Program-made: the position numbers and the translations under genes
Shown here: in pieces, positions 4,850 through 64,000 of the stretch
Layout: each line of letters starts with the position of its first letter
Position numbering within the stretch: position 1 is the first letter of the stretch
The notes under the pieces: generated by a model
Databases searched by the model: none
Seen by the model: the letters and a program-made list of their open reading frames with translations, nothing else
Told to the model about the DNA's origin: nothing
Assembly: GCF_964355755.1 (NCBI RefSeq)
Contig: NC_092674.1
Coordinates: 16,368,001-16,432,000, forward strand
From: Antedon mediterranea
Taxonomy: Eukaryota > Animalia > Echinodermata
Length of the DNA: 64,000 nt
Reading direction: 5' to 3'

Positions 4850-7140
4850 CTATTCATGAGTACTTGTAAACAAGTATTTTGAACATTACAATTAGACCGT
4901 ACACAACAGTAATAGAGCGTTAGCTAACATTTTAAGCGTATATGACGGAAGACAACATTTTACACGCCGGATGACACCAATACGTTTTGAAACATTTGAG
5001 GATACCTTGCTTATGTGATCATTCCAATTTAATTGCGGATCAAATGTGACCCCAAGATATTTAAAAGAGTCAACTCGTTCAATATTATATCTACATTATA
5101 AGATATTGAAATATCTTAAAATTTAGGAAGAATGTGGTTTGTCTTTTTGATGTTCAATGTTAGTTTATTAGTTTTAAACCAATTAGCAATTGTATTTAAA
5201 TAGGCATTTAGCTCGTATTGAAGAGTGAGGAAGAATTACAAAGTATAGTGGTGTCATCTGCATACATAACACATTTGCATGGCATAATATCTGGTAGGGA
5301 GTTAACATGAATAATAAACAAAAGAGGACCTAAAATTGAGCCCTGTGGTATACCAATATTTATATTCATAAAATCTGATTGAGAAGTGTTAATATTGACA
5401 ACTTGTGATCTGTTTCTTAAATATGATATAAACCAATCTAGTTCATTATTACTGACTCTATAACATTTGAGTTTACCAGGATTCATGATCAACTGTATCA
5501 AAAGCTTTCTTAAGATCCAGGAATATTGCTGCTGTAGGCTTACCATCATTCAAATTATTTAGTATATATCAGACATGTCTATTAATGTAGTCAGTCAGTA
5601 GAATGGTTTTTTTCTAAACCCTGATTGAGATGCATTAATAATATTATTAGCAGTTAAAAAGTTATACAGTTGATCATGAACTGCTCGTTCAATTATTTTG
5701 GAAATAATTGGAGATTGGTCCATAATTGCTTGGGTCGTTTTTATCACCATCTTTGAAAACTGGAGTTACTTTTGCTTTCTTCCATTTAGATGGAAAGATT
5801 AAAGAAAATAAAGATAAATTACAGATATAAGCAATTGTATCACAAATCACTGGTGCAGCCAAGTTTACCAATTTACAATCTAAGCCATCTATACCAGTGG
5901 CTTTGTTACCAGAAAGTTTACAAAGTTCATCAAACACATACTGTGAGGATATAAAATCAAATTTAAATTGGTTTTCAATATTTACATTTACATTTATAGT
6001 GTTGTTAGTAGTAGTGTTTAAAGAATTGTTTGAAAATTTTGAGCCAAGGATATTTCCTATCGAAGTAAAGTGTTCATTTAATTTATTTGCTATATCTTTA
6101 TCACATGAAGAATTTGAGACTTTACCAACATTTACAATATTCTTTGGAATTAGTTTATGAATTGTACTCCAAAGTTTCTTGGGGTTTTTAACATTTTCAC
6201 TGATTGATTTTGTGCAGTATTTCCTTTTTAGCTCTATATTTAAATTGTTTACTTTATTTCTCAGTGATTTTGCTTGTTTCCAATCTTGGGCACTATTAGT
6301 CTTGTGGGCTTTGTTATAATGATAATCTCAATTTTTTTTGTTAGTCTTATGTAATCACTACTAATCCATTCAGGAAGTGAGCCTTTTATTCTCTTTGTTT
6401 TAAGGGGAGCATGGGTGTGGGATGTTCTCGAATAAACATTTCCAAACTGACCAAGCAGTGTTAACATCAAAAACACTTTAAATTTGATCCCAATTGGCAG
6501 ATTTAATATCATTAATAAAGGCATTTGCATTAAAGTTTTTATAAGATCGCGATTTTATAACTTTAGGAGGGGCCTTTATTTTTTTATTTTTACAAACTAA
6601 ATAAATTAAAGAATGGTCACTAAGACCTAGACTATTTTGATTTGTAACAAATATTAAATCTATTGTTGTTTTAGTAATTTCAGTTATCCTTGTAAAAGCC
6701 TTTACAATTTGGTGTAGGCTACTTTGTTTTGCTAAATTATTAATTTTTCTTAGGTTAGTTTGTTTATTAATATCAAAATTAAAGTCTCCTAAAATTACAA
6801 CATCCTCATATAGTGTGGTACATTGCTGGAACATCAAATCTAGTTTAGATAAATAGTCTGCATTTGCACTGGGTGGTCTATATACAGTTCCAACTAGCAT
6901 AGGTTTTGTACAGGGTAGATTAACTTCAACCCAGAGAGCCTCAATATCATCATGTCTAATAGTATTTACCTCTTTGTATACAATACCACATTTGACATAG
7001 CATAAGACCCCACCACCAGATTTCCCATTATTTCTATCAATTCTACAAATTTCATATCATTTATCATTATTTCAGAATTATCTATATTGTTATATACGTA
7101 ATAGAGAACACGGAAGGCTAATTGTATCATGCAACAATTG
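4850..7140 (-). mobile_element. Decayed CR1/L2-group LINE ORF2 (AP endonuclease + reverse transcriptase)
   Basis: Frameshifted fragments VGTVYRPPS, VILGDFN, LSDH (APE); KWKKAKVTPVFKDGDKNDPSNY, GIPQGSILGPLLF, MYADDT (RT). Confidence 0.9.
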
Positions 7141-21993: not shown

Positions 21994-22845
21994 AAGCCTG
22001 GAAATGCAATCCCATCATTATATCCATTATAAAATTGCATCATATCGCCACTATATGTCGTAAATGATGACGTGCATGTGTGTATTTGTCGTACGTCCGT
22101 GTACGTATTATTCCGTGCCTCTTCACTGTCTTGTTTATTAAAATTAAATAAACACCCGATATGAGGATATTTATTAGGCATGATAATTAGAATGTTCTAT
22201 AACCAAAAGGGTTGAAAAGAATTTCTTCAGTAAAATGATCATTCTGCTGTTGAATAAAAAGCGACTCGCAATCTGAAACATTCTCTGAAACCAATCGGAG
22301 CTGCTCCTTCTGGTATGTGTTTCCTTCTCACAGCTGCTACGTCTTTCTGCTGCCCGTCGGGGATTCCCCTTTTTAAAAAACACGCACACGATAATCATAC
22401 TGTACGATGGTTTTTCCATGGTCAAAATGTAGCGTTTTAATTTTACTAAAATACCTGCATGTGTAAAACGATCATATCGGCGAAGAAATCCCCCTTTTTT
22501 TATTTCTTCATTTTGAATGGGGATCCAGTCAAGTCACCCCATTGCAGAGTTGCCCAATACAAAGTCGCCCCATCGCAAAGCAAAGTCGCCCCAAAACAAA
22601 GTCACCGGCACAGTTGCCCCATCACACAGACAGTTGGCCCATCGCAAAGCCGCCCACAGTTTTATTTCGGTATGAAGCGCCGCCGCTAGTAGTATCGTTC
22701 TTGTTTGTTGACGTTGTCGTTGGTAGGTTAGTTCATGGGTTTTTCTTTGTTGACGCAGAGGTTTTTTCAAATAATTTTTCCAATCGTTGTCCACCAATGA
22801 GTGACTTATTTTAAACATCATGATTAACTGCGTGATAGTATGTCT

Positions 22846-23961
22846 CTGACCAAAAATCTTTCTGCAGTCCTCCTCTTTGTAGATTTCGCAAAAGCCTTCG
22901 ATTCTGTCCATCGTGAAAAGATGCGTGAAATTCTTCTCGTCTACAAAATTCCACTTGAGATTGTCAATGCCATAATGATGCTGTACAAAATCTCAAGTGC
23001 CCTGGTTCGTTCTCCAGATGGTGATACTGATCCGTTTCAGGTAAAAGCAGGCGTCCTTCAAGGAGATACTCTCGCTCCCTACATCTTCATCATATGTCTT
23101 GATTATGTTCTCCGCTCGGCTATTGATCCACTCAACAAACACGGCTTAACATTGAAGCCAAGAATCAGTAAGAGGTTCCCTGCGACATTGGTAACTGACG
23201 CTGATTATGCTGACGATATAGCCCTGTTGTCGAACACGATTGCTGGAGCAAAATCCCTCCTACACACCCTTGAAAATGCTGCATCCTCAATCGGCCTCCA
23301 CATAAATGCCAAAAAGACAGAAAGTATGAACGTAAACTGTCAAGGTCAAATTCAAACTAGCTCCGGATACGCTCTCAATCAAGTCGACCAGTTCACCTAT
23401 CTTGGCAGCAACATTGCCTCAACAAAAAAAGACGTAGATATACGTATCAGCAAAGCCTGGTCAGCTCTCAAACGCCTGACTGTCATATGGAAGTCCAACA
23501 TCTCAAACAACATGAAGAAAAATTTCTTTAAGACCACAGTCGAGTCTGTCCTTTTCTACGGGTCATCGACATAGACCCTAACTAAGAAACTTGAAAACAC
23601 TCTAAACGGAACATATACTAGGATGCTACGAGCCGTTCTTAACGTTTCGTGGCAAGAGCACCTCTCGAACGCTCAGCTATATGGGAATCTTCGCAAGATC
23701 ACCGATGTTATCAAAGAAAGAAGAGTCCGCTTTGTTGGACACTCTTTCCGCAACAAAAGTGAACTGATAAGCGAACTTATGCTCTGGATGCCATCACATG
23801 GGACAAGAAGACCAGGCAGGCCCCCAAAATCATTCATTGACCAACTAGTTGCGGACTCCGGCCATACAATTGAAGAGCTACCAGGAGCAATGATGAACAG
23901 AGACGGCTGGAAAGAAGTAGTCAAAAGGATCCGAGCAAGCTCGACGCAGTAGTAGTAATAG
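22846..23961 (+). mobile_element. 5'-truncated RTE-clade LINE with (TAG)n tail and 10-bp TSD TAGTATGTCT
   Basis: FVDFAKAFDSVHR, GVLQGDTLAPYIF, DYADDIAL, RVRFVGHSFR, RRPGRP; single in-frame stop at 23572; TSD at 22836-22845 and 23962-23971. Confidence 0.92.
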
Positions 23962-29209: not shown

Positions 29210-30140
29210 CTATAAACAAGTATGTTAATTGGAGGTTTATCTACCGTGGTTGATCTAAGCTCTAGTAATAATGCGGTAGTCGGGCAAGATAGTTCTGTAC
29301 AACTCTGATTTCAAGAGCCTTTCTCCAAATTTTAAAATTAACGTCTCGTCTGGATGCGAGAGTGGTCAGATTTGTAAGCTTAAGAGCTGACTCATACGTA
29401 AGGAAAGCGGGACCCAGAATAACACGTAAAGCTCTCTTGCACTCTTTCGATGGTCGGTATTTGGGCCTTATTGATGCTTCCATGCAGGGCAGGCGTAGTT
29501 CTAAGATTGAGCGAATATAAAAAAAAAACTGATGTAATATCATGAACTGGTACATTGGCCCTTCTAAGAATATATAATGTATATAACCTTTTGGATGCTC
29601 TTTTGACCATGTCACTGACATTATTATCCCACTTCAAGTCATCCTGGATAATAAGTCCAAGGAGCTTCATACACGAAACAACATGTTGTATGCTAAGGTA
29701 ATAATTAGGAGGGGAAAAACGAAATATTTCTTTTCAAAAAAGTAACTACTGTATCTCATGATATGACACTTAGAGTGTTTAGGGATCATGTGATTTGTAT
29801 CACACCACTCAGTAAGGTCATCAAGACAAGATTGAAGTTTAGTGGGCATTACCATGTTTAACAGTGTCACCAAGAGTGAGATCATCATCAACGTACTTCC
29901 ACCATTTGCAGCCATCCATGGAAATATCATTGACTAATATGAGAAAAAAAATTGGTCCAAGCTTTGTACCCTGTGGAATCCCACAGGTGATGTTGGCATA
30001 AGGGGAGGATGAACTAAGTTTACTTAGTATTTATTTTACGATCCGTCAGAAAACTACAGATGGTGGGAATAATAGATGTTCTTACTCTGATGTCGACTAG
30101 CTTTTTAACAATGACCGTATGGTCAATTCGGTCGAAAGAC
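29210..30140 (-). mobile_element. Decayed LINE RT C-terminal half (GIPQGTKLGP type)
   Basis: FDRIDH, GIPQGTKLGP, LQSCLDDLTEWC, KLLGLIIQDDLKWDNNV..RASKRLY. Confidence 0.8.
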
Positions 30141-30183
30141 GGCACAAAAGAACCTATTTCAATGACACTAATTACAGACTGAA

Positions 30184-31740
30184 TCATGTCCACAAGACAA
30201 TGGCTAGTAGAATCACGTTATCTTTGTCATCAATAAAACAATTAGAGTCAAAACGAGTATAAAAAGTGTTCAAGTCATTTAAGTCCAAATTTGAGTCCAA
30301 CTTATTTACTTTCTTTCCAATTCCTGTTATAGATTTCAAGCCTTTCCATGTTGATTTAGCATTTTTCTGTTTAAAGCTTTCTTCTTTTTTCTTCCCATAC
30401 CTTTCTTTCACTTTCTTTATTTTTTCCCATATCAACGATTTAGTTTCAATAAGACGCTCCATCCAAGTCATTGTTTTTAAAGGTTTCCTGTTTACTAATT
30501 ATAAGTTCACGTAGTTCTTTTGTTATCCACGGCTTGTTGTTTGCATAAACTTTAAATTTCACATCCGGTATAATGCTGTTCTCACAGAACTTAATATATT
30601 CTGTTGCGTATTCTGTAGCATTATCTATTGAAGCCGCATTATCTAGAAAAATATCCCAACTAGTATTATGAAAGCAGTCCTTCAATTCTTCCTCATTTTC
30701 TTGGCTCCATTTCTTAATGGATTTAACCACAGGTTTTTCGTGCTTGACTTTCTGTATATATTTAGGTAAAAGATGCACCATATTGTGATCAGACAATCCA
30801 ATTCCCGGTTTCTTCTCAGCTTTGTACGCATCCTTAATCTTACTGTGTAACAGACGTCGATGGTTTTCACCTTCCTAGTTGGAATATTTACATGTTGATA
30901 TAAGTTAGGTAGGACATGATTCAACTTACACTTCTGTTAAAGTCACCAAGAATAATAGATACCGCTTCAGGAGATTTATTTTGAAGATGGTGATAAATCT
31001 CGGCAATCTTAGCACTTGCTATATTAACATCAGCTCCAGGGTGAACATATACCATGGTAATGAATATCTGACTAAATTCTCTTGGTAAATTGAAAGGACG
31101 AAGAGCTACACTTATAAGTTCTAGGTTTTCCAAGCAGAATTTCACTTTGACAGAGACATACTACACCATCGCTCATTCACGTATACACAGACTCCTCCAC
31201 CTTTCGATTTCCCTGTATTCATATCTCTATCAAGACGTTCACAGTGAAAACCGTCTATAGCCACATCCGATAGGGTATTCAATTCACTAAACCACGTTTC
31301 TGAGAAACCAAGCAAACAACTGTCTCTATACTCATGTACAGTAAGTGTTGAACAGATGATGTAAGTTCGTCAAGCTTATTGTTAAGAGATTGAGCATTCC
31401 CAAAAAGGATAGATGGCAAAGGTGGATTAAACTTATGTTTTCTTAGTCTTGAACGTACCCCACCTCTACTTCCACGCTTTTTAGTATTATTTTGCTGGAT
31501 TTCACGATCGATTCCTAAGAGCTTGGCTCTGTTCCGTGTCGCTTCATTCACTTGGCTTGGACGCGACCGGAACGCTAGTAACTCCACACGACCATTTGTT
31601 ACTACTGGAATAGATTGGCGGTACTCCAGGCTAGGTACAACCACATCAATTTCATCGAAAACGAAACAATATAACAGCAAAAAAACACAACCACGTATTT
31701 CTATAAATATCATAACGGTTGGATGACAACAATAAAAACA
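30184..31740 (-). mobile_element. Rex1/Babar-like LINE 5' half (AP endonuclease)
   Basis: RGSRGGVR..PPLPSILFGNAQSLNNKLDEL, LRPFNLPREFSQI, ILGDFN, SDHNMVHLLPKY, NNKPWIT. Confidence 0.85.
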
Positions 31741-31747
31741 TATAAAT

Positions 31748-32630
31748 ATGCTAGAATCCGTTCAGAGGAGAGCTACCTGCATGATCTTGAAGAAAGGTTA
31801 TTTAGATCAACATTATATAGATAGAAGAAAGGAGCTAGGTCTAATGTCAGTAGAGAATAGGCGTGATTTCTTAAACATGACATTCATTGCCAATATAATA
31901 ATTTCTCCACGATCTGATTTTATGAGTGAATATGTTGATTCTTTTTTAGTTAATAATCGACACCTAGATATACTCACCTTTCATCATGGTAGAGCTCGTA
32001 CTGATGCTTTTAAATACTCAGGGATAGTACGATTTCCTAAAATGTTTTCAGAACTTGGTGCTACGATCAGAAACAATCTTATTGAAGAGTCGTTTTTTAA
32101 GTTTAAACACAGTTTAAAGCAACATTTTATAGATTTTTAACTTTTCATATTTTTATTAACATGATTGTACCTACTTTGAATTTTTAACTTTTTAACTTTT
32201 ATACAATCAGAATTTTTAACTTTTTTACAATCAGAATTTTTAACTTTTATACAATCAGAATTTAACTTTTATACAATCAGAATTTTTAACTTTTATACAT
32301 TCATAATTTTTAACTTTTATTCAATCAGAATTTTTAACTTTTATACAATCAGAATTTTTAACTTTTACACAATCAGATTGTTCAGATAGCAATTGCATTT
32401 TTATAACACTTTTGTTAACATTTTATTATACCTTATTTTTCTATGTATTTTTCTAAATTTGTTAAATGTCGGTTTTATTGTATCGTTCAAGTTGACAGGG
32501 GCTGGTCAAGCACATCACAAGATGACAGTTTTATACTTTTGCTTTTCCGCTACTCCCCTGTTATACTTATATGTTTGTTTTTTTGCTATGTAGAAAGATT
32601 GAAAATAAAATAAAATAATAAATAATAAAT
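31748..32630 (+). mobile_element. 3' fragment of a CR1-type LINE with minisatellite-bearing 3' UTR and (AAAT)n tail
   Basis: LESVQRRAT...ELGLMSVENRR; ~22-bp TTTTAACTTTTATACAATCAGAA repeats at 32180-32378; AAAAT/AAT tail. Confidence 0.8.
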
Positions 32631-43809: not shown

Positions 43810-46105
43810 GCTTTATTTAATCACGGATACTTAACTCAACTGAAAGTTGTTTTTCAGTAAGACCGGGTTTAAAGGAAAACACCAACAAAAATGAATGTAA
43901 AAAGACCTTAATTACTATCAAAACAGATAATAAAACAATTACAATGAAATAAAATGAAACAAGGATACACTTACTAACTATAAAATTAAATAATACACTA
44001 CATTTAAATAAAGCTACATGAAATTAGCAGTTAACAGTTTCTTAAAAAGAGAGACAGTGTTCACATTTTTAATATCTTCATTTAGCTCATTCCAAACCTT
44101 GGCACCTCTATATGATAAGCTACGTTTTTTGTAGGTTGTTTTTGGTTTTGGTACTATTAGATTTGGCTTAGTCCTAATAATATAGTAATTGTTTTTGATA
44201 TTGAACTTATTTATTAAATATGGAGGTGCAAGGTTGTTCATAATCTTAAACATAACAATAGCTTCATTTATATATAATCTTTCATCTAAGTTCATCCAAT
44301 TTAGACTTTGTAGAGCTTGAGTACAAGAGTCGGTTTGAGATTTGTTTGTAATAATAACTTTTGCTGCGCGATTTTGAAGAATTTGTAGTGTTTTACTTTG
44401 AGTTATATTTGAACGTCTCCAAACAACATGGCAATACTCAAGATGAGGAGCCATAAGTGATTTGTATAGTTTGCATTGAATTTCTTTTGGAAATATATTA
44501 TTAGTCTTTTTTAAATAGTACAAGCTCTGCTTAGATTTTACATTATCGATTTTTGAGCACCAAGAAAGATTACTATCTAATATCACACCAAGGTGTTTAC
44601 ATTTATTTACACGAGAGATTTGTTCTCCATCCATGTTAATGTGGACTTGTAAGTCAGATAGCTTATTTAACCTCTGCCTCGTTCCAATTAACACAAATTC
44701 AGTTTTTTAAACATTTAGGCTAAGTTTGTTGCATATGACCCATCTTTTAAGACACAATAAGTCAGAATTTATTGTTTCAGTAAGGTTATTAATATTATTG
44801 GAAGTGTAGTATATGGCAGTGTCATCAGCATATATAGAAACCGAGCATTTATTTACAACATTAGGCAAGTCATTAACATAAAAGGAGAAACATTAATGGT
44901 CCTAGGATGGACCCCTGAGGAATTCCACATATACTGTGACTTTCATCAGAAAAATCACCATTTACATTGGTTATATGTACACGATTATGCAGGTAGTTTT
45001 CAAACCACTTAATAACATTTGAATGAAAATTGAAAGATCTTAGTTTATTGATGAGAATACTGTGATTTACTGTATCGAAAGCCTTTTTCAAGTCTATCAT
45101 TACTAGCCCAATATAATTTCCTGTGTCAATGGCTTCTAGCCAGGTCTCTGTGATATTAAGCAATGCAGGTGTAGTTGAGTAGCTTGGTCTAAACCCAGAC
45201 TGATTTTCATATAGAATTTTGTTTAGATTTAGGAAATCATAAACTTGTTCAAATACAACTTTTTCAAGAACTTTTGATAATATTGGGAGAATTGAAATTG
45301 GCCTATAGTTTATTACATTCGTTTTTATTTCCACCTTTATGAAGAGAGCAGATCTTGGCCCTTTTCCATTGTTTTGGAAAAGTTAAATTTTTTAAAGATA
45401 AATTAATTATATTGGGTAAAAAATTTCATCGATAGCGATTTTTAGAAGATTAGCTGGTATTTCATCAGTTCCAGTTTCTTTTTTTGATGAAAGTGATTTA
45501 AGAAGTTTATGTATGTCTTGTTTATTAACTTATTTAAAAGTTGTCGTTAGTATTATTTATATCATTAGTAAAGTTAGAGAGTTGATTAGTAGATTGAATA
45601 CTTTGAGCTAATGTTAACCCACATTGGCAAAATACTTATTTAATACATTTGCAATATCTTTAGAATTAATTACTTCATCATTTTCTTCATCATTTGTGGT
45701 TTTAATACTTGTTATATTCATGCTTTTAGTTTTGCCAGGAATAATTAATTTAATATTTTCCCATATCTTTTTCTGATCTTTTGTATTGAGTTGTTCAGAA
45801 AAATAGTTCTTCTTACTTTTTCGAAGTTCATAATTAACTTGATTTCTTAATTTTCTATATTCAGGCCAAAGCTGAGGCCTATTTTTCTTATTTATTCGTC
45901 TTTTTAATGCATCTCTTCTTCTGATGAGAAGTATTACATTTTTAGTTAGCCATTGACTGTTTTTTTGGCAAACTCTTTTACGTTTAATGGGTGCATTTTT
46001 ATTTGCAATATTAAGAAAGGTTTTTTGAAAGAAATCAACAGCATCATCAACTTCAGTATAATTTATAATTTCAGCCCAATTTGTATTAAGTAAGTCAGTT
46101 AAGTA
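43810..46105 (-). mobile_element. Decayed CR1/L2-group LINE ORF2 (RT and C-terminus)
   Basis: NYRPISILPILSKVLEK, QSGFRP, IDLKKAFDTVNH, GIPQGSILGP, IYADDT, KHLGVILDSNLSW, LQNRAAK. Confidence 0.92.
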
Positions 46106-46955
46106 TCTCCATTGAGATCCGGCCACTGATACCCACAGCATTGTCATTTTTCAGTAATTTGCCTTTGGATTCGTAATAAATGCTCTAACACATATTCCTC
46201 TAGAATGTTGCATTTTTCTTTTTGCTGAATCATCATTATTTATTTTTATTAACAAATGTTGATGGAATTACTGATCTTTATAATCTATTTTAATAGGATA
46301 ATAGTATTAAAATGTAACTTAAAATTTAACATTTCAAACGGTTTTTTTACCTGATATATAGAATGAAAATCTTGTTCACACACAACAATAAAAAATAAAA
46401 ACATAAATAATATATAAAAATTTTACCATGGGCCTATTTCTGCTTTGAGAAATTAATAACTGATTAAAGTATTATGTGAATGAATGGGTGATACTCATCT
46501 ATGCCCAGTAGGGCCCGGTAGGTCTTATGATATAAAATGTTACAATAAAATGTACATCCAATCATTATATTTAATGTTTTGTTTTTATACATTTTAAAAT
46601 CAAAATTAGTAATGTACTGTAAGTCAAAATACTGATTAGCTTTATTCGGTGACTGAAGACCGCCCTCTGTGACATGATATTATTTTATATCGTAAAACCC
46701 TTACAGGCCCTACCGGATGTAGATTGGTATGACCGGAATGAATTGCCTCCATTCTCTTGCCAGCAGTTAAGTCAGATAATGTCTTTAAACTGCATACAGG
46801 ACAACTGCATTTATATTGCTTGCTTATTGCATTATTACTATATCGCTGCTTGCTAATAAACAGTTAAAGTTAACATATTTGCTCAATAAAAAGTTTAGAA
46901 AATCTTTATTTGTAATTAATCTAAGTTAGGTTTATTATTTGTTTTTTCGTTACAG

Positions 46956-57433: not shown

Positions 57434-57736
57434 GATTTGTTTGTACCGATTATCTAAAAAATCTCAATGATTTTCAATTTTTACAATATTATCTGTATCA
57501 TAATCAAACTTAGCCATGATAAGCTTTTCAGTGTGATCACTCTACCGTCATCAGGCCGCCAATTTGTGAATTCACCATAATATCAATCATATTTTCACAA
57601 CTGATTTTCAGATATCAATTCAATTTACTACACATAAACTTCAGGTCAAGGGTCAACATATAAGCACAAAAAAACAAATGCATATGCAGAAACTTTGCAG
57701 GAAATTTTTGAAATGCTCAAAATCAATTTCTAATAA

Positions 57737-57966
57737 ATATTCTCATTCATCCAGGTAGTATTAATATTCTCATTCATCCAGGTAGTATTAATATTCTCAT
57801 TCATCCAGGTAGTATTAATATTCTCATTCATCCAGGTAGTATTAATATTCTCATTCATCCAGGTAGTATTAATATTCTCATTCATCCAGGTAGTATTAAT
57901 ATTAGAAATTCATCCAGGTAGTATTAATATTAGAAATTCATCCAGGTAGTATTAATATTAGAAATT
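57737..57966. repeat. 27/28-bp minisatellite (ATATTCTCATTCATCCAGGTAGTATTA), 8 units
   Basis: Six identical 27-mers, then two 28-bp variants. Confidence 0.95.
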
Positions 57967-59071
57967 TAAATGTATCTACATGATAAATTCCCATTAACAA
58001 CACACATCACATGAAAGTTAAATAATCGTACACCCTGCAATAGGAAATGTAATCCAAGTTTGTGTTAAAAAGATACCTATTTTGAATCTCTTATAGCTCA
58101 TCACAATCAACGGTGACCCCTAATTTTTTTAATTTATTATGGAAGCCAATGAGTTCTAGATATGATTTAATGTACACATTTGACGTACAAAATGTTATGA
58201 CGTCATCATATGGTCACATTTCTTTTGTCATAAATAATCACATTCAATAGAGCGCTCGCTTATAATGTGCCCGATTGTCTTTCAAATTTTAATATGTACT
58301 TGAAACCATTTGTCTTTATCATAACTTGCCACCATTTTCATTTTGATGACGTCATCCCACCTAAAAAATTAAATACCGTATATTTGAATATCTTACAGCT
58401 TGATGTTTAAAATATGAAATTTAGATATGAATTCATATATAAATTGCGCACATTTTAGTTGAAAAAGATACAAAATGTTGGCAAATTGCCTATTTTTAAT
58501 CTATTACAGTTCCTCAGGAACTAAGGTGACCCCCAATTTTTTAAACTTATTATGCCAGCGGATATGTTGTAGACATGAATTCATGAAAAATGATGTTTTG
58601 ACGTCGTCATATGGCCACGCGAATGGAAAAAATTGGATTTTTTTCTCTTTCTTTATAGCTTATCACTAATGACAAATGAATTGAATTAAATATATTGTAG
58701 AATTTACTATATTAAAGGACAACTTCATGGGTAACCATAGTTTTTTGCAAGATTTATAATTTTACCATGCTGTCACCTTGAATTGGCTGTCAGGTTGCCA
58801 ATGCATCGGAAATCTAACTGTGTTTACTGTTGTTAAGTATATAATTGCTAATTTGTCCTGTATGCAGGCTTAAATTAGCCAATTTTCAATCAATATTTGA
58901 AGGAACAGTTATAATAATCAAACAGACAAAAGAAAGGGAAAAATAATTTTAATTTTTATGATTTATTTTAAATTGTGTTACTAGAAATTCAAGCTTTTAA
59001 AAATTCCTTTAGTAATGTTTGGCATTGATATCTTCAGAGTAATTTAATATCTTGTGTTATGTTTTATGAAG

Positions 59072-59204
59072 CTTAAACAAGAAGATGATGAAGGGATGCA
59101 AAGTGACCCCAGATGCTCTTTGACTCTACTTAGACTTTCTGTATGGGTTCTTGATCCCAAGCAAAGACTGAAATGGCTAGCCCAACTAGTAGACTACTGT
59201 AAAG
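59072..59204 (+). CDS. TUBGCP3: TUBGCP3 coding exon 12
   Basis: aag|LKQEDDEGMQSDPRCSLTLLRLSVWVLDPKQRLKWLAQLVDYCK|gtaaag. Confidence 0.93.
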
Positions 59205-59673
59205 GTAAAGATTTTAATCCATGTTAAATTACTTCAGAAAGCTTCATATCATTCTTGTCTAAGATGGTTAACCCAAATGTCTGAGTGTATATTATTATAA
59301 CACACATTTGCAATTTGATTGATTAATTATGCATCCTGTGTCATTCGGCATTAGCCCTACCTAATAGAAAAGGTGATACTTAACATGCTTTAATGCATGT
59401 TCAGCTTTTAGTAAACATTTTGGGAATTTTTGCCATGCGATGTTGTTGACATTTTGAAATCAGCCTATAGTGCACGCTGTCTATTATAATTGTTCTACTT
59501 TGTGTCGAAAGTTTAAAAGAGCACTGCCTAGCTTCCAGGCCTATTATTTGTTAATAATTTACGATGGATAAATTGAATAGATGTGTTATAAAACATATAT
59601 TTTTAGACTTTTATCATTAAAACTAAATCTTGCACTGTATTTTTGACAGTCTCTTGCTTAATGTTTTATTTAG

Positions 59674-59840
59674 ATAAAAAAGGAGGAGCATTATCCTCAG
59701 CCATTCATTCATATGCAATGCATGGTGACCCAGATGTACATGGACTAATGCAACATGTATTGAAACTAGCTGCATACCCAATACAACATTTTATTGATAA
59801 ATGGATTTATGATGGACAATTAGAAGATCGATGTCATGAG
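59674..59840 (+). CDS. TUBGCP3: TUBGCP3 coding exon 13 (gene continues beyond window)
   Basis: tag|(D)KKGGALSSAIHSYAMHGDPDVHGLMQHVLKLAAYPIQHFIDKWIYDGQLEDRCHE|gttag. Confidence 0.95.
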
Positions 59841-61007
59841 GTTAGTTGTTTTTATCGTTAAAAGATATGTACAAACATACAAATGTGGTCTTTAAATAAT
59901 CAGGTTTTTTTTTATTTAAGAGATAATTGAGTCAAAGTTGTCAAATGGCAGCCATTTTTATTTTATGCAAATTAGGTCATTTATAATGACCAGATTGGGT
60001 AGATTTTGGATACAGTACAGCTAATAATTACTGCTTCGTTCCCACGTGTAACCTTTCGTAGCCCACGCGTGGGGCATTGTTGAACCTACGATGTATTGTC
60101 TTTTGATCGCGATCCTATGCGCTCCCACGGAGGCCATTGTTTTTTGATCGCGATTCTAGGAGAGGTATTGTTCTTTGATCGCATTCCCACGCGCTCCCAC
60201 GAGCTCCCACGAAAGGCATTATATTTTGCTTGTGATTCTACGAAACGAATTGTTTCTTGATTGCGTTTCCACGCGCTCCCACGAACGTGTTTTTGGGGTG
60301 AAGATTCTATTGTGTGTGTCATGGTGTAGATGGCTAGGCGAGGAGATCTGTATACAACATACTGTACGTACAGTATACCTTTATGTAGCCTACGGACGAT
60401 CAGGCATTAACCTCGCGTCGTATAGCCGTTTGTTTTTTAAATGAGCAAATGAGTATATTTTAACGTAGTTGCAATTAAAAATGACGGGAATTAGGCTACA
60501 AATACAGATAATACAGATGATAAATAATTATAGGCCTAGACCTATTCCCATGTAGACTTTGTAGTTGTGAACTTTGTCCTATTACTTCTTAGGAGGTTGA
60601 CACTGACATTTGTATCATGGCTGGTGTTTCTAAATGATTCGTTTCGTTTATTTATTTGACCAGAATAATATCAATATAATAACATACAAAACACCAAATG
60701 GGTAAAATTCGGGGAAATTTTTTAAACAAAAAATAAACTGAAAAATTAATGTAATGCATGTTTTAAAAAGTCAATCATGATTTTCCTCGATAAGCGTACA
60801 GTATAATTGTTACGTTTACGCCAAATATGTAAGGGTAAATCAATGTGTATTATTAGTCATTACAGTCATTCTTAATATGTATTGAAATTTAAATTATCTA
60901 TTGAAATGCGGGGTACAATCATGTTAGTTAACTCCCTAATAATGCACTGTAATTGCTGTCATTTATCATTTCTGGTCAGTAGTAAGCATACGTTCATTCC
61001 ATTTATA

Positions 61008-61345
61008 ATGTCAAAAACGCCATCTCATATCCGATCAAGGATCGTTCGTTACCATCATATGGGGTACAAACTAACAAAGATATTGTAAATCCTACACACT
61101 GAAGGTTATGACGTTCATAAATCGATAATATCAAGAATTATAAAGCGATTTAATAATTTTAAACAAATTAGTGACCGTCCACGATTCGATTTCATAAGCC
61201 ACGTACAAAAGATGAACTGATTTGTGGTATCAAAACGTTTTGGACAACTAACATGACTCCAGAATTATGTCAAACTTATATTAGCCACTTGAGAAAGGTT
61301 ATCCTGGCCGTTATTAGAAGAGAAGGCAAAGCAACCGGATATTGA
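61008..61345 (+). pseudogene. Internally deleted Tc1/IS630-type transposase
   Basis: HTH N-terminus MSKTPSHIRSRIVRYHHMGYKLTKIL*ILHTEGYDVHKSIISRIIKRFNNFKQISDRPR fused at ~61185-61195 to C-terminus KPRTKDELICGIKTFW..TPELCQTYISHLRKVILAVIRREGKATGY*; DDE core absent. Confidence 0.8.
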
Positions 61346-62065
61346 AGTGTATTCATCGCAAACCAAACAGCCCTTTTCAGGGCTACAAAAATACGAAAGA
61401 AATTTGATAGCATTTACTTGGTCTATTTTTTTTTATTACCACATTACTTATACCCTATATATGTTTTATTTTAAATCTCTTTATCGACACCTTTACGTAC
61501 TGTACATTGTAAGCACAAACCCCAGAAGAACAAATAACAATAGCGGTACTATTATGATAATAATACCTTTTCTTTTTGTAACAATACATAATACAAAGCG
61601 ACGTTTAAAACAATGATAGGCGCAACTGTAATGAAATGAGTCATACTGTTAAATGAAGCTCTTTTTTATCTTTATTATTATTTTCTGTTAGTTAGCAAAA
61701 AATCATTAAATTATAAATACTAAACACTGATGTAAAAGTAATAAACGTTTTGATTTATTAACATTAACGACATACAAAAATATAACATTAATTTATAAAT
61801 ACAGTAAAAGACTAAATTAAAGACAATTTGTAAACGTTTAAATACTAAATAAAATAATTAAACATTATTATACTTAACATTTTAAATGTACTTAATCTTT
61901 AGTTAAATTTTCTAGTGAAGAGAGAGTCTCTTTAAATCGCGTTTTAACATTAATTTATTAACTAAGTAAAAGAAAATATTTAACAATAAAATACTAAATA
62001 AAATTCGGACAATTTGTAAACATTTAAATACTAAATTAAAAAATTAAACATTATTACACTTAAAT

Positions 62066-62869
62066 TTACTTATCTAGTGAAGAGAGTCTCTTTAAATCGC
62101 GTTTTCTGTTTCGTCTAGCAGCATCGAATGAAATTTCACAGGATCTCCATACCTTCTGTTCTAATCCTTTCGCGACTGGAGAATACTTGAAAGTTTGTTG
62201 TCGTACGATATCCATTCGTTCCACGTCCAGTTGTTCTGCATCCCGAGTACCGCTTACGTTGCATCGTAGTCGTTCTTCTTCGGTGAAATAATATCCAAGC
62301 AAATGTTTCGATACTTTCTTCGTGTCTTCGTGGTCGCGTAGAAGTTTTAGAATCAGGTTACGTGGTAGGTCATCTTCTGAGTTTAGTCGTCTTGGTGGGT
62401 GTACGCTGGGTCTTGATGGAGTAGCGGTTGGTGGTGGTGGAGGAGTTTGAATGATTGGTTGTGCTGTCGTCGAAGGTAACCATGGTTGGTGTATCTGCCG
62501 TTGCTGTGGTTCAGGTCGTGATTCAATTGATGATAGTCTTTGGTGAATGGCAAGTAAGTCGGCTGATTGACGGTCAAGTTGGCGTTGTTGGGTAGCTACT
62601 GTGTTGGTCAGAGTTAGATTCGCTGCCTCCAGTTCATGAACCCGATCATTCAACGTGGCTATGGTGATGGCATCAGTGTTCGAGTCGTCGCTGTCCCTCC
62701 ATGCAGTGGCTGATAAAGTGATGTCTTTTCCTGTGTCCTGTTCATATCTGGCTATCATCGTACTCATTTGGTCATCAGCGGTGTTTAAAGGGCACGCGTC
62801 ATATTGCCAATCATCTCCAACGTCGTCAGTCCTTACAACGTCAGTAACAATTTCACGAACACATGCAGC
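62066..62869 (-). CDS. BEN-domain protein, exon 3 (coiled coil, Pro-rich linker, C-terminal BEN domain)
   Basis: ttctttacag acceptor; 268 open codons; LLGYYFTEEERLRCNVSG..QLDVERMDIVRQ..P..E..WRSCEISFDAARR fits the BEN pattern; heptads LNDRVHELEAANLTLTNTV. Confidence 0.8.
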   Translation of the reverse strand, partial: AACVREIVTDVVRTDDVGDDWQYDACPLNTADDQMSTMIARYEQDTGKDITLSATAWRDSDDSNTDAITIATLNDRVHELEAANLTLTNTVATQQRQLDRQSADLLAIHQRLSSIESRPEPQQRQIHQPWLPSTTAQPIIQTPPPPPTATPSRPSVHPPRRLNSEDDLPRNLILKLLRDHEDTKKVSKHLLGYYFTEEERLRCNVSGTRDAEQLDVERMDIVRQQTFKYSPVAKGLEQKVWRSCEISFDAARRNRKRDLKRLSSLDK

Positions 62870-63153
62870 CTGTAAAGAAAAGAAAATAATACATAGAACA
62901 TTATAAAACAAAAACCAATAATGTAAATTAGCGCGCAAGCGTAAGATGAATTTTACGATGAATTGTGGAAAACCACATGTGGATGCAATAAACAATGTGA
63001 TTAATTCTAGTAATTACTGTCAACAAATAGTGGTGGGTCTATGGAAGAAAGCTAAATCTGTATGTAATATAATATCAAATAAGGGAAATAAAACAACTTT
63101 TTAAATTATGGGAATAACATTTAAAAAATGAGTTTTAAAATGTTTAACTTAAC

Positions 63154-63339
63154 TGGTTTCTCAACATTAACAGTCTTCCTCTTCTTTGGTTTCGTTCCAT
63201 AATCATGTTGTTTCTTTCCATCATCTCTATCATCATTCACCACGGCATCATCAGTGTCATCATCATCATCGTTGTCGCTCTGAACCAATTCTCCAGCGAT
63301 GCTTTCGTATTTGACCGTCACGCCAATCGAAGTATTAAT
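63154..63339 (-). CDS. BEN-domain protein, exon 2 (acidic tract + basic NLS-like motif)
   Basis: ttctttttag|INTSIGVTVKYESI..DNDDDDDTDD..KPKKRKTVNVEKP|gttaag; 62 codons, phase 0-0. Confidence 0.7.
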
Positions 63340-63601
63340 CTAAAAAGAAGTAAAAACAACAAAATTTAACAAACATATCAAAATAGTGGAAATGTATACC
63401 ATAAAAAAAAATCATTGAAAACAACAGGAAATTATATTAATTTATTTATTGATGTGTCAGTCGCCACAAACTATGGAATATTACATGTAGTTTGTAAATG
63501 TTAAAATTAAAATGTAAGGACAAAATTAAAATGCTTGTCCGTTTCAAAAATGGATAATCAATTAAATAACAAGAAAGTAAATAACAAGAATAACATCTTA
63601 C

Positions 63602-63897
63602 CTCACAAAGAAACGGATTGTTGTTTTCGACAACTAATGGCGGTGATAATTCTCCACTTGGGATGGTTTTACTAAATTTATCTCCACGTTGCAGTGTTCT
63701 TAAAGTTACGTGCGCTGCAGATATGATTCGTCTGCGTAATGCGTAACAAAATCGCTCGCTACCCATGATGAGTTACTGTATCCAGCCCACTGTATCAGTA
63801 TTCGCCTTCTGTCTATTTTTTAAATTTTTCCCGTTAGCCAAATCCCGCATTCCTTATCGATGGCCTGGATGCTGCTCCCAATTTTAAACGTCGACAT
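63602..63897 (-). pseudogene. BEN-domain protein, exon 1 (Tudor/chromo-barrel-like), disrupted by a stop and a frameshift
   Basis: aaaATG; MSTFKIGSSIQAIDKECGIWLTGKI*KIDRRRILIQWAGYSNSSWVASD / ..LRTLQRGDKF..VVENNNPFLCE|gtaaga; 296 nt, one short of an intact frame. Confidence 0.65.
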
Positions 63898-64000
63898 TTT
63901 GTAAGTGATAGTAAATATTAAATGATGACAAACACCAGTTATCAGCGTGTTTTTATACTTGTTGAGCGGGAACATAAACAAAATCGAAGAACAATATAAT

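Follow-up and report, generated by a model that had tools for sequence, protein, structure and literature searches.

The locus and its left border

In the window, by which is meant the whole 64-kb stretch of DNA analysed here, an insertion with a TA dinucleotide at its left end lies in an intron of a host gene. It carries the remains of a Tc1-type transposase gene, a histone-type stem-loop behind it and, tail to tail with it on the opposite strand, a three-exon gene whose product is referred to below as the helper (Table 1). The host gene is that for gamma-tubulin complex component 3 (GCP3, TUBGCP3): its exon has a match to GCP3 chains with an E of 9e-17, where the next paralogue gives 4e-3, and Pfam GCP_N_terminal was matched there in the window search. 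An initial sequence-only reading had placed the insertion inside a TUBGCP3 intron, and the exon match bears this out.

Table 1. Features of the insertion and its surroundings, by position in the window.
Feature	Position	Strand	Evidence
Host GCP3 exon directly upstream of insertion (context only)	59676..59843 (approximate limits)	+	GCP3 match, Pfam GCP_N_terminal
High-depth repeat, TA apparently used for insertion	59915..60012	.	contig depth, loose ends
TA target dinucleotide, left copy of presumed duplication	60011..60012	+	sequence, contig junctions
Left terminus, begins CAGTACAG (TA|CAGTACAG)	60013..60070 (inner limit approximate)	+	contig junctions, single copy in window
Whole insertion within window	60013..64000, right end beyond 64000	.	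contig joints, terminus search
Subterminal array: 9 YCCACG sites and TTGATCGC repeats	60041..60283	+	motif count
N-terminal part of transposase: paired-like helix-turn-helix, DRPR at its end	61008..61185	+	reading frame, PAX E 0.15
Transposase deletion joint	61185..61187	+	680 letters here in X5 contig (net 679)
Last 52 codons of transposase, then TGA stop	61187..61345	+	reading frame
Histone 3' stem-loop (RF00032)	61364..61408; stem and loop 61369-61384	+	E 5.5e-6, 30.6 bits
Tandem duplication, local to BEN gene end, period 162-186 bp	61783..62091	.	repeats; joints 61796-61974, 62068-61928
Helper exon 3, frame open, with coiled coil, Pro/Gln linker and BEN domain	62066..62869	-	profile, folds
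Helper exon 2: second barrel end, acidic run, basic NLS-like motif	63154..63339	-	open frame
Helper exon 1: Tudor barrel, then first part of second small barrel	63602..63897	-	predicted folds

The repeat directly before the insertion has a contig depth of about 300 in X1, compared with 14-28 at the host exons, and loose contig ends occur ahead of 59915 as well as behind 60012. Past 60012, X1 continues with 30 nt that match nothing anywhere in the 64-kb window. The TA and the repeats of the terminus had been recognised earlier, but the end had been set at 60031, a position rejected here since contig junctions and sequence put it at 60013, 18 bp further out. In contigs of a related species, organism B (X6, X8), the TA and CAGTACAG are joined to another flank, and these differing flanks may stem from short copies that contain no genes. 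One organism B contig (X6 record 16) holds the GCP3 exon and intron corresponding to 59526-60014 followed by 838 nt, and after 60014 no other piece of it falls on 58500-64000 among those listed. The orthologous GCP3 intron of organism B thus departs from the window sequence at the TA end of the element. Searches of the window for an inverted copy of the left terminus gave one match each, the left end itself, and at the right edge the longest contig among those listed stops 56 nt past 64000.

The transposase gene and the stem-loop behind it

The transposase relic previously proposed at 61008-61345 on the plus strand was recovered in the reading frames of the window. This copy is damaged by a stop codon at 61086-61088 and by the absence of 679 nt of the core, so that the catalytic core is gone with an internal deletion. 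The core is present in other runs, and in the X5 contig the flanking parts stand in frame with each other for 338 aa, as calculated by frame arithmetic. At the deletion joint the letters read GRPNIVTNE after DRPR on one side and VWHQLKDYLR ahead of 61187 on the other; the reading on the core side covers 10 codons, which include W..LK, and the DDE residues lie within the deleted part. The position of W..LK is taken by us to be after the catalytic E. Judged by its sequence, the combination of GRP linker and W..LK motif is of Tc1/mariner type. The 338 aa, the GRP linker and the paired-like N-terminal helix-turn-helix, this last matching PAX only at E 0.15, correspond to what is expected of a transposase of about 340 aa, which is the typical size in a family with TA duplication (PMC5630946; here and below, statements attributed to papers by PMC number refer to the portions of them that were available).

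Variants of the transposase in X8 derive from several copies. The transposase fragments found no homologue in a word-indexed search, which by the nature of the method is weak evidence, nor among metagenome or viral contigs. Nothing significant was matched in the PDB or in NCBIfam, where the sole match was IS6 at E 0.027, and among plasmids the best match had an E of 4, at a locus without transposase annotation.

A hairpin with a 6-bp stem and a 4-nt loop lies 23 nt past the transposase stop, with a purine-rich stretch behind it. It resembles a histone 3' end signal in standing close behind the stop of an intronless ORF, and it scores 30.6 bits with the histone stem-loop model, below the gathering score of 34. 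No other such stem-loop occurs in the 64 kb, and shuffled windows contain 0.07 on average. Its 5' arm and loop recur in an organism B contig, at a loose end of X8 behind 61348. None was found at the helper gene in the window search. X5 was considered as a possible source of RNA and rejected as such: its contigs run through introns and are uninformative on expression.

The helper gene and its product

The exons of the minus-strand gene suggested at 63897-62066, tail to tail with the transposase, were upheld; its intactness in this copy was not, since exon 1 is interrupted at codon 26 by an in-frame TAA and shifts frame near 63738. Splicing at 63602/63339 and 63154/62869 yields an open frame, in agreement with XP_071956502.1, an annotated protein, and an intact, intron-containing version of 433 aa is annotated in Antedon mediterranea (RefSeq). 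Exon 2 differs from the helper protein P0001 at one of 62 aa. The tandem duplication around the end of the gene is arranged differently in organism B.

The order of a Tudor-like N-terminus, an acidic and basic linker, a coiled coil and a BEN domain, as first read from the letters, is confirmed by profiles and structure matches. The window's own letters match Pfam only weakly (BEN E 0.22, TTD E 0.13, PAX E 0.15). Among 77 homologues, 55 match the BEN profile PF10523 at E <=0.01, the window exon itself failing to reach the cut-off. A profile of the helper family matches the BEN domain of BANP (E 2.7e-8) above that of BEND3 (6e-6), and a single-sequence PDB search with P0001 had BEND3 BD4 as its best match (E 0.03). 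The best five structural matches of the full predicted model are all BEN domains (Z 9.4-7.6), with BANP matched at Z 9.4 and an rmsd of 3.6 over 100 residues. BEN clusters were also met at 0.84-0.85 in an Atlas comparison for P0001, which is a lead only.

Predicted models of the N-terminus have the five-stranded barrel of the Tudor/Royal family. The barrel of the homologue P0004 (pLDDT 85) matches the TDRD3 Tudor domain at Z 10.1 (rmsd 1.1, 53 residues). For P0001 itself the barrel match has Z 7.0 (rmsd 0.9, 54 residues), and the best Foldseek matches are to the tandem Tudor of UHRF1 at E 9e-4 and a TM of only 0.36. Across 22 aligned homologues D14 is invariant (22/22), W20 and W37 are each kept in 21, and all 22 have Y or F at position 40. 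At the helper position that we presume to be equivalent to F152 of UHRF1, Leu is found in 18 of the 22, W37, Y40 and D14 being conserved; because of this Leu the aromatic cage is possibly incomplete. UHRF1's tandem Tudor domain (TTD) binds H3K9me, with F152, Y188 and Y191 as its cage residues (PMC4615792).

Homologues of the helper are divergent paralogues across echinoderms. Anneissia has four, with 29-51% mutual identity in the N-terminal region, Holothuria has three loci, and Lytechinus has two, which lie on different contigs and form one 90% cluster. Invariant residues are retained in the family at about 30% identity. A transposase domain is present in none of the 77 homologues, and no locus for P0001 was found among viral or metagenome contigs.

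The subterminal YCCACG array

The first 288 bp of the element contain nine YCCACG sites, where 0.067 would be expected from the remaining window; 2000 shuffles of the array region gave a mean of 0.22 and a maximum of 3. Four sites are the full YCCACGC, and one palindromic pair lies at 60062-60073. The motif is that of human BEND3: YCCACG(C) is the sequence bound by BEND3-BD4, whose binding is blocked by CpG methylation (PMC8887127, PMC10602864), and a similar site is bound by EGR proteins (PMC8887127). Regarding the residues through which BEND3 contacts the bases, P0001 keeps R810 and R814 and has A for E807 and D for K815 when mapped in an ungapped register, which the gapped HMMER alignment shifts. 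The equivalent of R810, an arginine that in BEND3 reads a guanine of the site, is R in 43 of 48 homologues.

Linkage of the two genes

The proposal of a two-gene element of Tc1/mariner type gains support from the departure of organism B at the TA end, from contigs that bridge the two genes and from the absence of an internal terminus. X5 record 10 covers 60242-61620; X1 record 6 runs from the end of the transposase to the BEN stop (61204-62072); in organism B, X8 record 24 begins at 61478 and is joined onward to 61974. No second terminus was found in the window between the transposase and the BEN gene, and neither termini nor a second transposase relic were seen from 61420 to 62066. Depth in organism B, which is a hint only and does not equate to copy number, is alike along both genes in the listed element contigs (87-118 in X6, host 55-59; 332-531 in X8, host 125-190). 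The linkage of helper and transposase is thus seen in two close species, that of the window and organism B. Very probably the two genes move together, in a single TA-flanked unit of some 5 kb or more.

Comparison with known systems

The element resembles the Tc1 family of the IS630-Tc1-mariner elements in the TA at its end, its terminus starting with CAG and an intronless ORF of about 340 aa (PMC7325037, PMC5630946, PMC10379824), as well as in the paired-like N-terminus with GRP linker and the W..LK past the catalytic region. It differs in its size, at least 4.7 kb where the Tc1 family has 1.3-2.4 kb, and in adding a second, spliced gene tail to tail and a histone stem-loop. DD37E/TRT transposases have the same length of 338 aa, but the C-terminus in the TRT supplement, as far as available, reads differently. 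Membership in this group of 1.5-kb, single-ORF elements was rejected, as the window element is far longer, has a second gene and bears a C-terminal motif absent from that part of the supplement.

The premise of the sequence-only reading that Tc1/mariner elements carry a transposase alone was too strong, because the ciliate TBE and Tec elements have three ORFs (PMC7325037, PMC4724952); Tc1/mariner elements with more than the one gene are therefore already known. TBE and Tec are similar to the window element in that their Tc1/mariner transposase is accompanied by further ORFs, which are kept under selection in TBE and one of which lies on the opposite strand (PMC4724952, PMC7325037). They differ in being restricted to ciliates and in carrying, in place of Tudor-BEN, a zinc finger/kinase, a recombinase or a small ORF.

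The helper is similar to BEND3 BD4 and BANP in its BEN fold and basic C-terminal helix, with YCCACG being the BEND3 site, and to the UHRF1 tandem Tudor in its barrel. Unlike these proteins it joins both on a mobile element, and the base-contact and cage residues are only partly kept. With replication-dependent histone genes the transposase gene shares an intronless ORF that has a 6-bp stem with a 4-nt loop close behind it and purine-rich letters after that; the differences are that the ORF encodes a transposase, that the first stem pair is A-U and that the score is below the gathering threshold. In 2024 Puzakov and co-workers reportedly described L31 elements of bivalves and corals that carry an ORF2. 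Compared by description only, L31 is similar in being a marine-invertebrate element of the Tc1/mariner group with a reported second ORF. The family is attested with molluscs, a cnidarian and a nematode as hosts (PMC7325037), and a search of the available supplements of that paper for the transposase motifs gave no sequence matches.

Among other superfamilies, TnpA of En/Spm binds subterminal repeats and VANC of Mutator counters silencing. Together with the Myb/SANT protein of Harbinger, these represent second genes for a DNA or chromatin binder, as is seen here, and KolX of Kolobok is likewise such a gene (PMC9587614). All four differ from the window element in belonging to other transposase superfamilies and in having other domains.

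Among the results listed by full-text literature searches, no paper dealt with L31 ORF2, with Tc1/mariner elements that contain BEN or Tudor genes, or with a histone stem-loop behind a transposase gene; Repbase, the original BEN paper, the 2023 BEN phylogeny and the L31 papers fell outside their scope and may describe such cargo. Term look-ups in the available parts of PMC12062965, PMC9004415, PMC10294476, PMC8533490 and PMC6431247 gave nothing relevant.

Interpretation

We suggest, with a probability of about one half, that the locus holds a decayed two-gene transposon of Tc1/mariner type whose predicted Tudor-coiled coil-BEN helper binds the element's own terminal YCCACG array and regulates the element there. 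The mRNA of the intronless 338-aa transposase would rather probably receive its 3' end through the histone stem-loop pathway (SLBP/U7), and because of this the enzyme would be made mainly in S phase or in oocytes, when cut-and-paste moves could raise copy number. An early end of the transposase transcript might also reduce its overlap with the convergent helper transcript. More tentatively, and at slightly worse than even odds, the helper would dimerise through its coiled coil, its BEN domain would read unmethylated, CpG-containing YCCACG and its Tudor barrel would engage methylated histone tails, so that the end and the transposase promoter are kept unsilenced or are tuned, as TnpA does for En/Spm.

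The strongest alternative, which has an appreciable but lesser chance of being right, retains the same two-gene element and lets the helper act elsewhere, either by tethering the transpososome to target chromatin or by broadly countering host silencing, the array being a site of the transposase or of a host BEN- or EGR-type factor. Subterminal repeats in Tc1/mariner elements are normally transposase sites, of the four base contacts of BEND3 the helper retains only two, and the binding of EGR proteins to a similar site and of Tudor-type folds to histone marks, H3K9me in the case of UHRF1 TTD, would also be in keeping with it (PMC8887127, PMC4615792). Against this, an array of BEN motifs with a palindromic pair in an element that carries a BEN gene would be a coincidence, and the arginine that reads the guanine is widely kept in the homologues. 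It is improbable that the Tudor-BEN gene is a passenger, either captured once and carried without a role or belonging to another element, for instance of CACTA type, nested in or beside the Tc1 element. The right end beyond the window and a linkage seen in two close species only would allow for this, but the interval between the genes has neither termini nor a second transposase relic, organism B has the same junction, an intact intron-containing version exists and the invariant residues have persisted at low identity. That the BEN gene is a conserved host gene nested in the GCP3 intron, with the transposase relic a chance neighbour, is highly improbable and largely refuted in spite of the intact RefSeq model, on one contig, since the gene is broken in the window copy, the orthologous intron of organism B departs from the window before both genes, and the family is not single-copy, as the earlier reading had allowed it might be, but consists of dispersed, divergent paralogues.

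Implications

Genetic tools have been built on animal Tc1/mariner elements, which are the standard example of transposons with one gene. The transposon proposed here would encode a helper that unites the predicted fold of a histone-mark reader with a putative sequence-specific, possibly methylation-sensitive DNA binder, for which a candidate site lies on the element itself. Two questions thereby become testable: do DNA transposons of animals encode factors for anti-silencing or self-regulation, and do the many lineage-specific BEN proteins derive from mobile elements? With its histone-type 3' end the transposase gene suggests a simple route by which a cut-and-paste element might time its enzyme to replication, and such an end could explain the absence of such transposases from annotations based on poly(A) RNA. 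A broader view, and at present an unlikely one, is that of an echinoderm-wide Tc1/mariner lineage with its own Tudor-BEN factor reading an unmethylated BEND3-type array, and with a transposase made in S phase and in eggs by borrowing the pathway of histone mRNA. If true, the helper of such a lineage would be an animal counterpart of the plant anti-silencing helpers TnpA and VANC, and BEN transcription factors would have a mobile source.

The element and its insertion site

We consider it highly probable (about 0.85) that the insertion starting at 60013 is a two-gene Tc1/mariner element, with the linkage of a transposase gene and a tail-to-tail helper (BEN) gene seen in contigs of both organisms A and B. 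A sequence-only reading had proposed a two-gene Tc1-type transposon; the left TA end and the gene-bridging contigs speak for it. In the window copy neither gene is intact. The stretch, which has the base composition of AT-rich animal DNA, is contained in nine public runs under the organism labels A and B, and contigs were compared for six of these (X1, X2, X5, X6, X7 and X8, with X6 and X8 from organism B). The proposed TUBGCP3 setting holds, given a PDB match to GCP3 (E 9e-17); an X6 contig joins a GCP3 exon to the intron.

Coordinates of features in the window
Feature	Position	Strand	Remarks
Gamma-tubulin complex component exons	~59072-59206 and ~59676-59843		GCP3 by PDB match
Transposase gene	61008-61345	+	two frames in window copy
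Histone 3' stem-loop (RF00032)	61364-61408	+	E 5.5e-6; 30.6 bits, under the gathering score of 34
Helper gene exons	63897-63602, 63339-63154, 62869-62066	-	spliced product matches P0001
Tandem array	57733-57966		27-28-bp units
Repeat in two copies	58063-58585		74% identical; very deep in each of four runs
LINE-type reverse transcriptase and endonuclease frame fragments	5200-7050, 22800-23950, 29300-32100, 44000-46150		by eye

Positions 60011-60020 read TA followed by CAGTACAG, and the contigs set the left end after the TA of 60011-60012, 18 bp further out than the 60031 first proposed. Behind 60012 an X1 contig has a loose end whose 30 letters are absent from the whole window. In organism B a 1321-nt contig (X6 record 16) holds a GCP3 exon and intron 59526-60014 and then 838 nt more, with no second window piece among the pieces listed. 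As 60013-64000 contains no match to either continuation, both genes most likely, on this comparison of sequences, lie within the insertion, which would extend past 64000. For the X1 loose end, a possible origin is the ordinary continuation of the flanking repeat and not a second haplotype, and under either origin it marks an unoccupied site; organism B could have a different insertion at the GCP3 site. The 100 bp preceding the TA are a deep repeat in themselves, and it is the TA of this high-depth repeat (59915-60012) that holds the element. Contigs of X6 and X8 carry the TA and CAGTACAG with a different flank, and no second copy of the terminus occurs within the 64-kb window. In organism B, high depth is found for short relatives of the left end as well, which suggests gene-less derivatives.

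Several contigs join the parts of the element. X5 record 10 covers 60242-61620, X1 record 6 covers 61204-62072 (four letters changed, six gaps), and X8 record 24, from organism B, begins at 61478 with joints that extend to the BEN stop region. In organism B the element contigs listed have about equal depth along both genes and exceed the host contigs listed by a factor of 1.5-4, although contig depth is no copy number. Since the GCP3 site of organism B appears empty, we infer that its two-gene arrangement lies at another site. No loci for the transposase fragments or for P0001 (XP_071956502.1, an intact 433-aa version of the helper) were found in viral and metagenome contigs.

The transposase and a predicted histone-type 3' end

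The transposase relic recognised earlier is present, split over two frames and broken by a stop at 61086-61088 that is absent from X5, X6, X7 and X8 and present in the main X2 contig. At the joint 61185/61187 a 2094-nt X5 contig carries 680 letters; by frame arithmetic on this contig, in which the inserted letters are counted and not translated, 178 + 680 = 858 nt stay in frame and give 338 codons, and its interior may hold further breaks. Loose ends at the same joint in X2, X7 and X8 read, in the translated X2 versions, GRPNIVTNE after DRPR on the left and VWHQLKDYLR on the right. One sample, X2, contains the joint left by the deletion together with a version that has the core and a third, more divergent copy (window 60880-61352). 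The transposase fragments reached a significant score in none of the libraries searched, including NCBIfam and PDB. Judged by the sequence on both sides of the catalytic core, the transposase features (paired-like N-terminus, GRP linker, W..LK, ~340 aa and TA end) are those of Tc1/mariner, in which W..LK follows the catalytic region. The other four are given as Tc1/mariner features in PMC5630946 and PMC10379824, and TRT has a transposase of equal length with a different C-terminus (PMC5630946).

The hairpin, overlooked in the sequence-only reading, begins 23 nt past the transposase stop and is unique in the 64 kb, against 0.07 occurrences per shuffled window. Its 5' arm and loop are carried by an organism B contig, and a window scan found no histone-type hairpin for the helper gene. 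In general, the histone 3' stem-loop causes an mRNA to be processed by SLBP/U7 and to accumulate in S phase or in oocytes, and it is reasonably probable that the transposase mRNA would be made through this pathway. Contig depth spikes in the 61260-61443 bin, probably due to histone gene repeats.

The helper gene and its family

The three-exon minus-strand gene read earlier agrees in its splice set with P0001, from which the spliced window helper differs at 2/51, 3/45, 1/62 and 8/268 positions by segment. P0001, from Antedon mediterranea, was the only close protein found (98% identity over exon 3). In the window this gene is interrupted by a stop at codon 26, and near 63738 it has 4 nt fewer than in organism B. 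The Tudor-like N-terminus and BEN domain were likewise upheld. Besides a pair of small beta barrels, the AlphaFold models (pLDDT 79 and 85) contain a helix of 50 residues and a C-terminal domain made of helices. As modelled, the first of the barrels matches the Tudor fold (Z 10.1, rmsd 1.1, 53 residues), and Foldseek ranked the UHRF1 tandem Tudor first, at low TM-scores. Both the profile (BANP, E 2.7e-8) and the modelled fold (the top five structural rows) identify the C-terminal domain as BEN.

A full-library search gave 78 matches; with P0001 left out, Pfam BEN was found in 55 of 77 homologues and a transposase domain in none. Twenty matches checked for source gave 14 named clusters, every one echinoderm: Antedon, Anneissia (4), Holothuria (3), Apostichopus (3), Amphiura, Patiria and Lytechinus. 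The Anneissia paralogues share 29-51% identity in the N-terminal region, and Lytechinus has two loci on separate contigs in one 90% cluster. Seven homologues (P0007, from Amphiura, and P0011, P0013, P0019, P0021, P0028 and P0055) are multi-BEN proteins of the helper's BEN subtype; they are likely host genes, and possibly relatives of domesticated helpers.

A candidate target and possible roles of the helper

The first 288 bp of the element hold nine YCCACG sites, one pair palindromic, compared with 14 in the 60,012 bp preceding it; 0.067 would be expected, and 2000 region shuffles gave a mean of 0.22 and a maximum of 3. Over this array (60041-60283) CpG observed/expected is 1.43, against 0.86 elsewhere in the window. 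PMC8887127 and PMC10602864 give YCCACG(C) as the site of human BEND3 BD4, whose binding is blocked by methylation of its CpG. BD4 provides the best single-sequence PDB matches of P0001 (E 0.03). Of the BD4 base contacts E807, R810, R814 and K815, P0001 in an ungapped register retains the equivalents of R810 and R814 and loses those of E807 and K815; in the homologue alignment these columns hold E in 17/48, R in 43/48, R in 22/46 and K in 14/40. The array as predicted target of the helper BEN domain is a lead and no demonstration.

We tentatively propose that the helper would form a dimer that recognises unmethylated YCCACG at the ends and also engages methylated histone tails; in this way it would protect the end and the transposase promoter or adjust their activity. 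The array repeats could instead be transposase sites, and a helper acting on target or host chromatin while the array serves the transposase is a somewhat less likely arrangement. It is improbable that the BEN gene is a passenger or part of a nested element. That it is a host gene is very hard to credit, as the homologue pattern of divergent paralogues and dispersed loci is that of a mobile family, whereas a single-copy gene would not show it.

Transposons with accessory genes include En/Spm, Harbinger and Mutator, and an ORF2 is reported for the L31 elements found in bivalves and corals. Accessory genes are also described for Kolobok (PMC9587614), the ciliate TBE and Tec appear as multi-gene Tc1/mariner elements (PMC7325037, PMC4724952) and the L31 family is confirmed to exist (PMC7325037). 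Full-text literature searches, judged from result listings, yielded no paper that describes Tudor/BEN cargo in a Tc1/mariner element or a histone stem-loop behind a transposase gene. The feature noted here is real; the element may be a member of L31, and if so its two-gene plan would be less novel.
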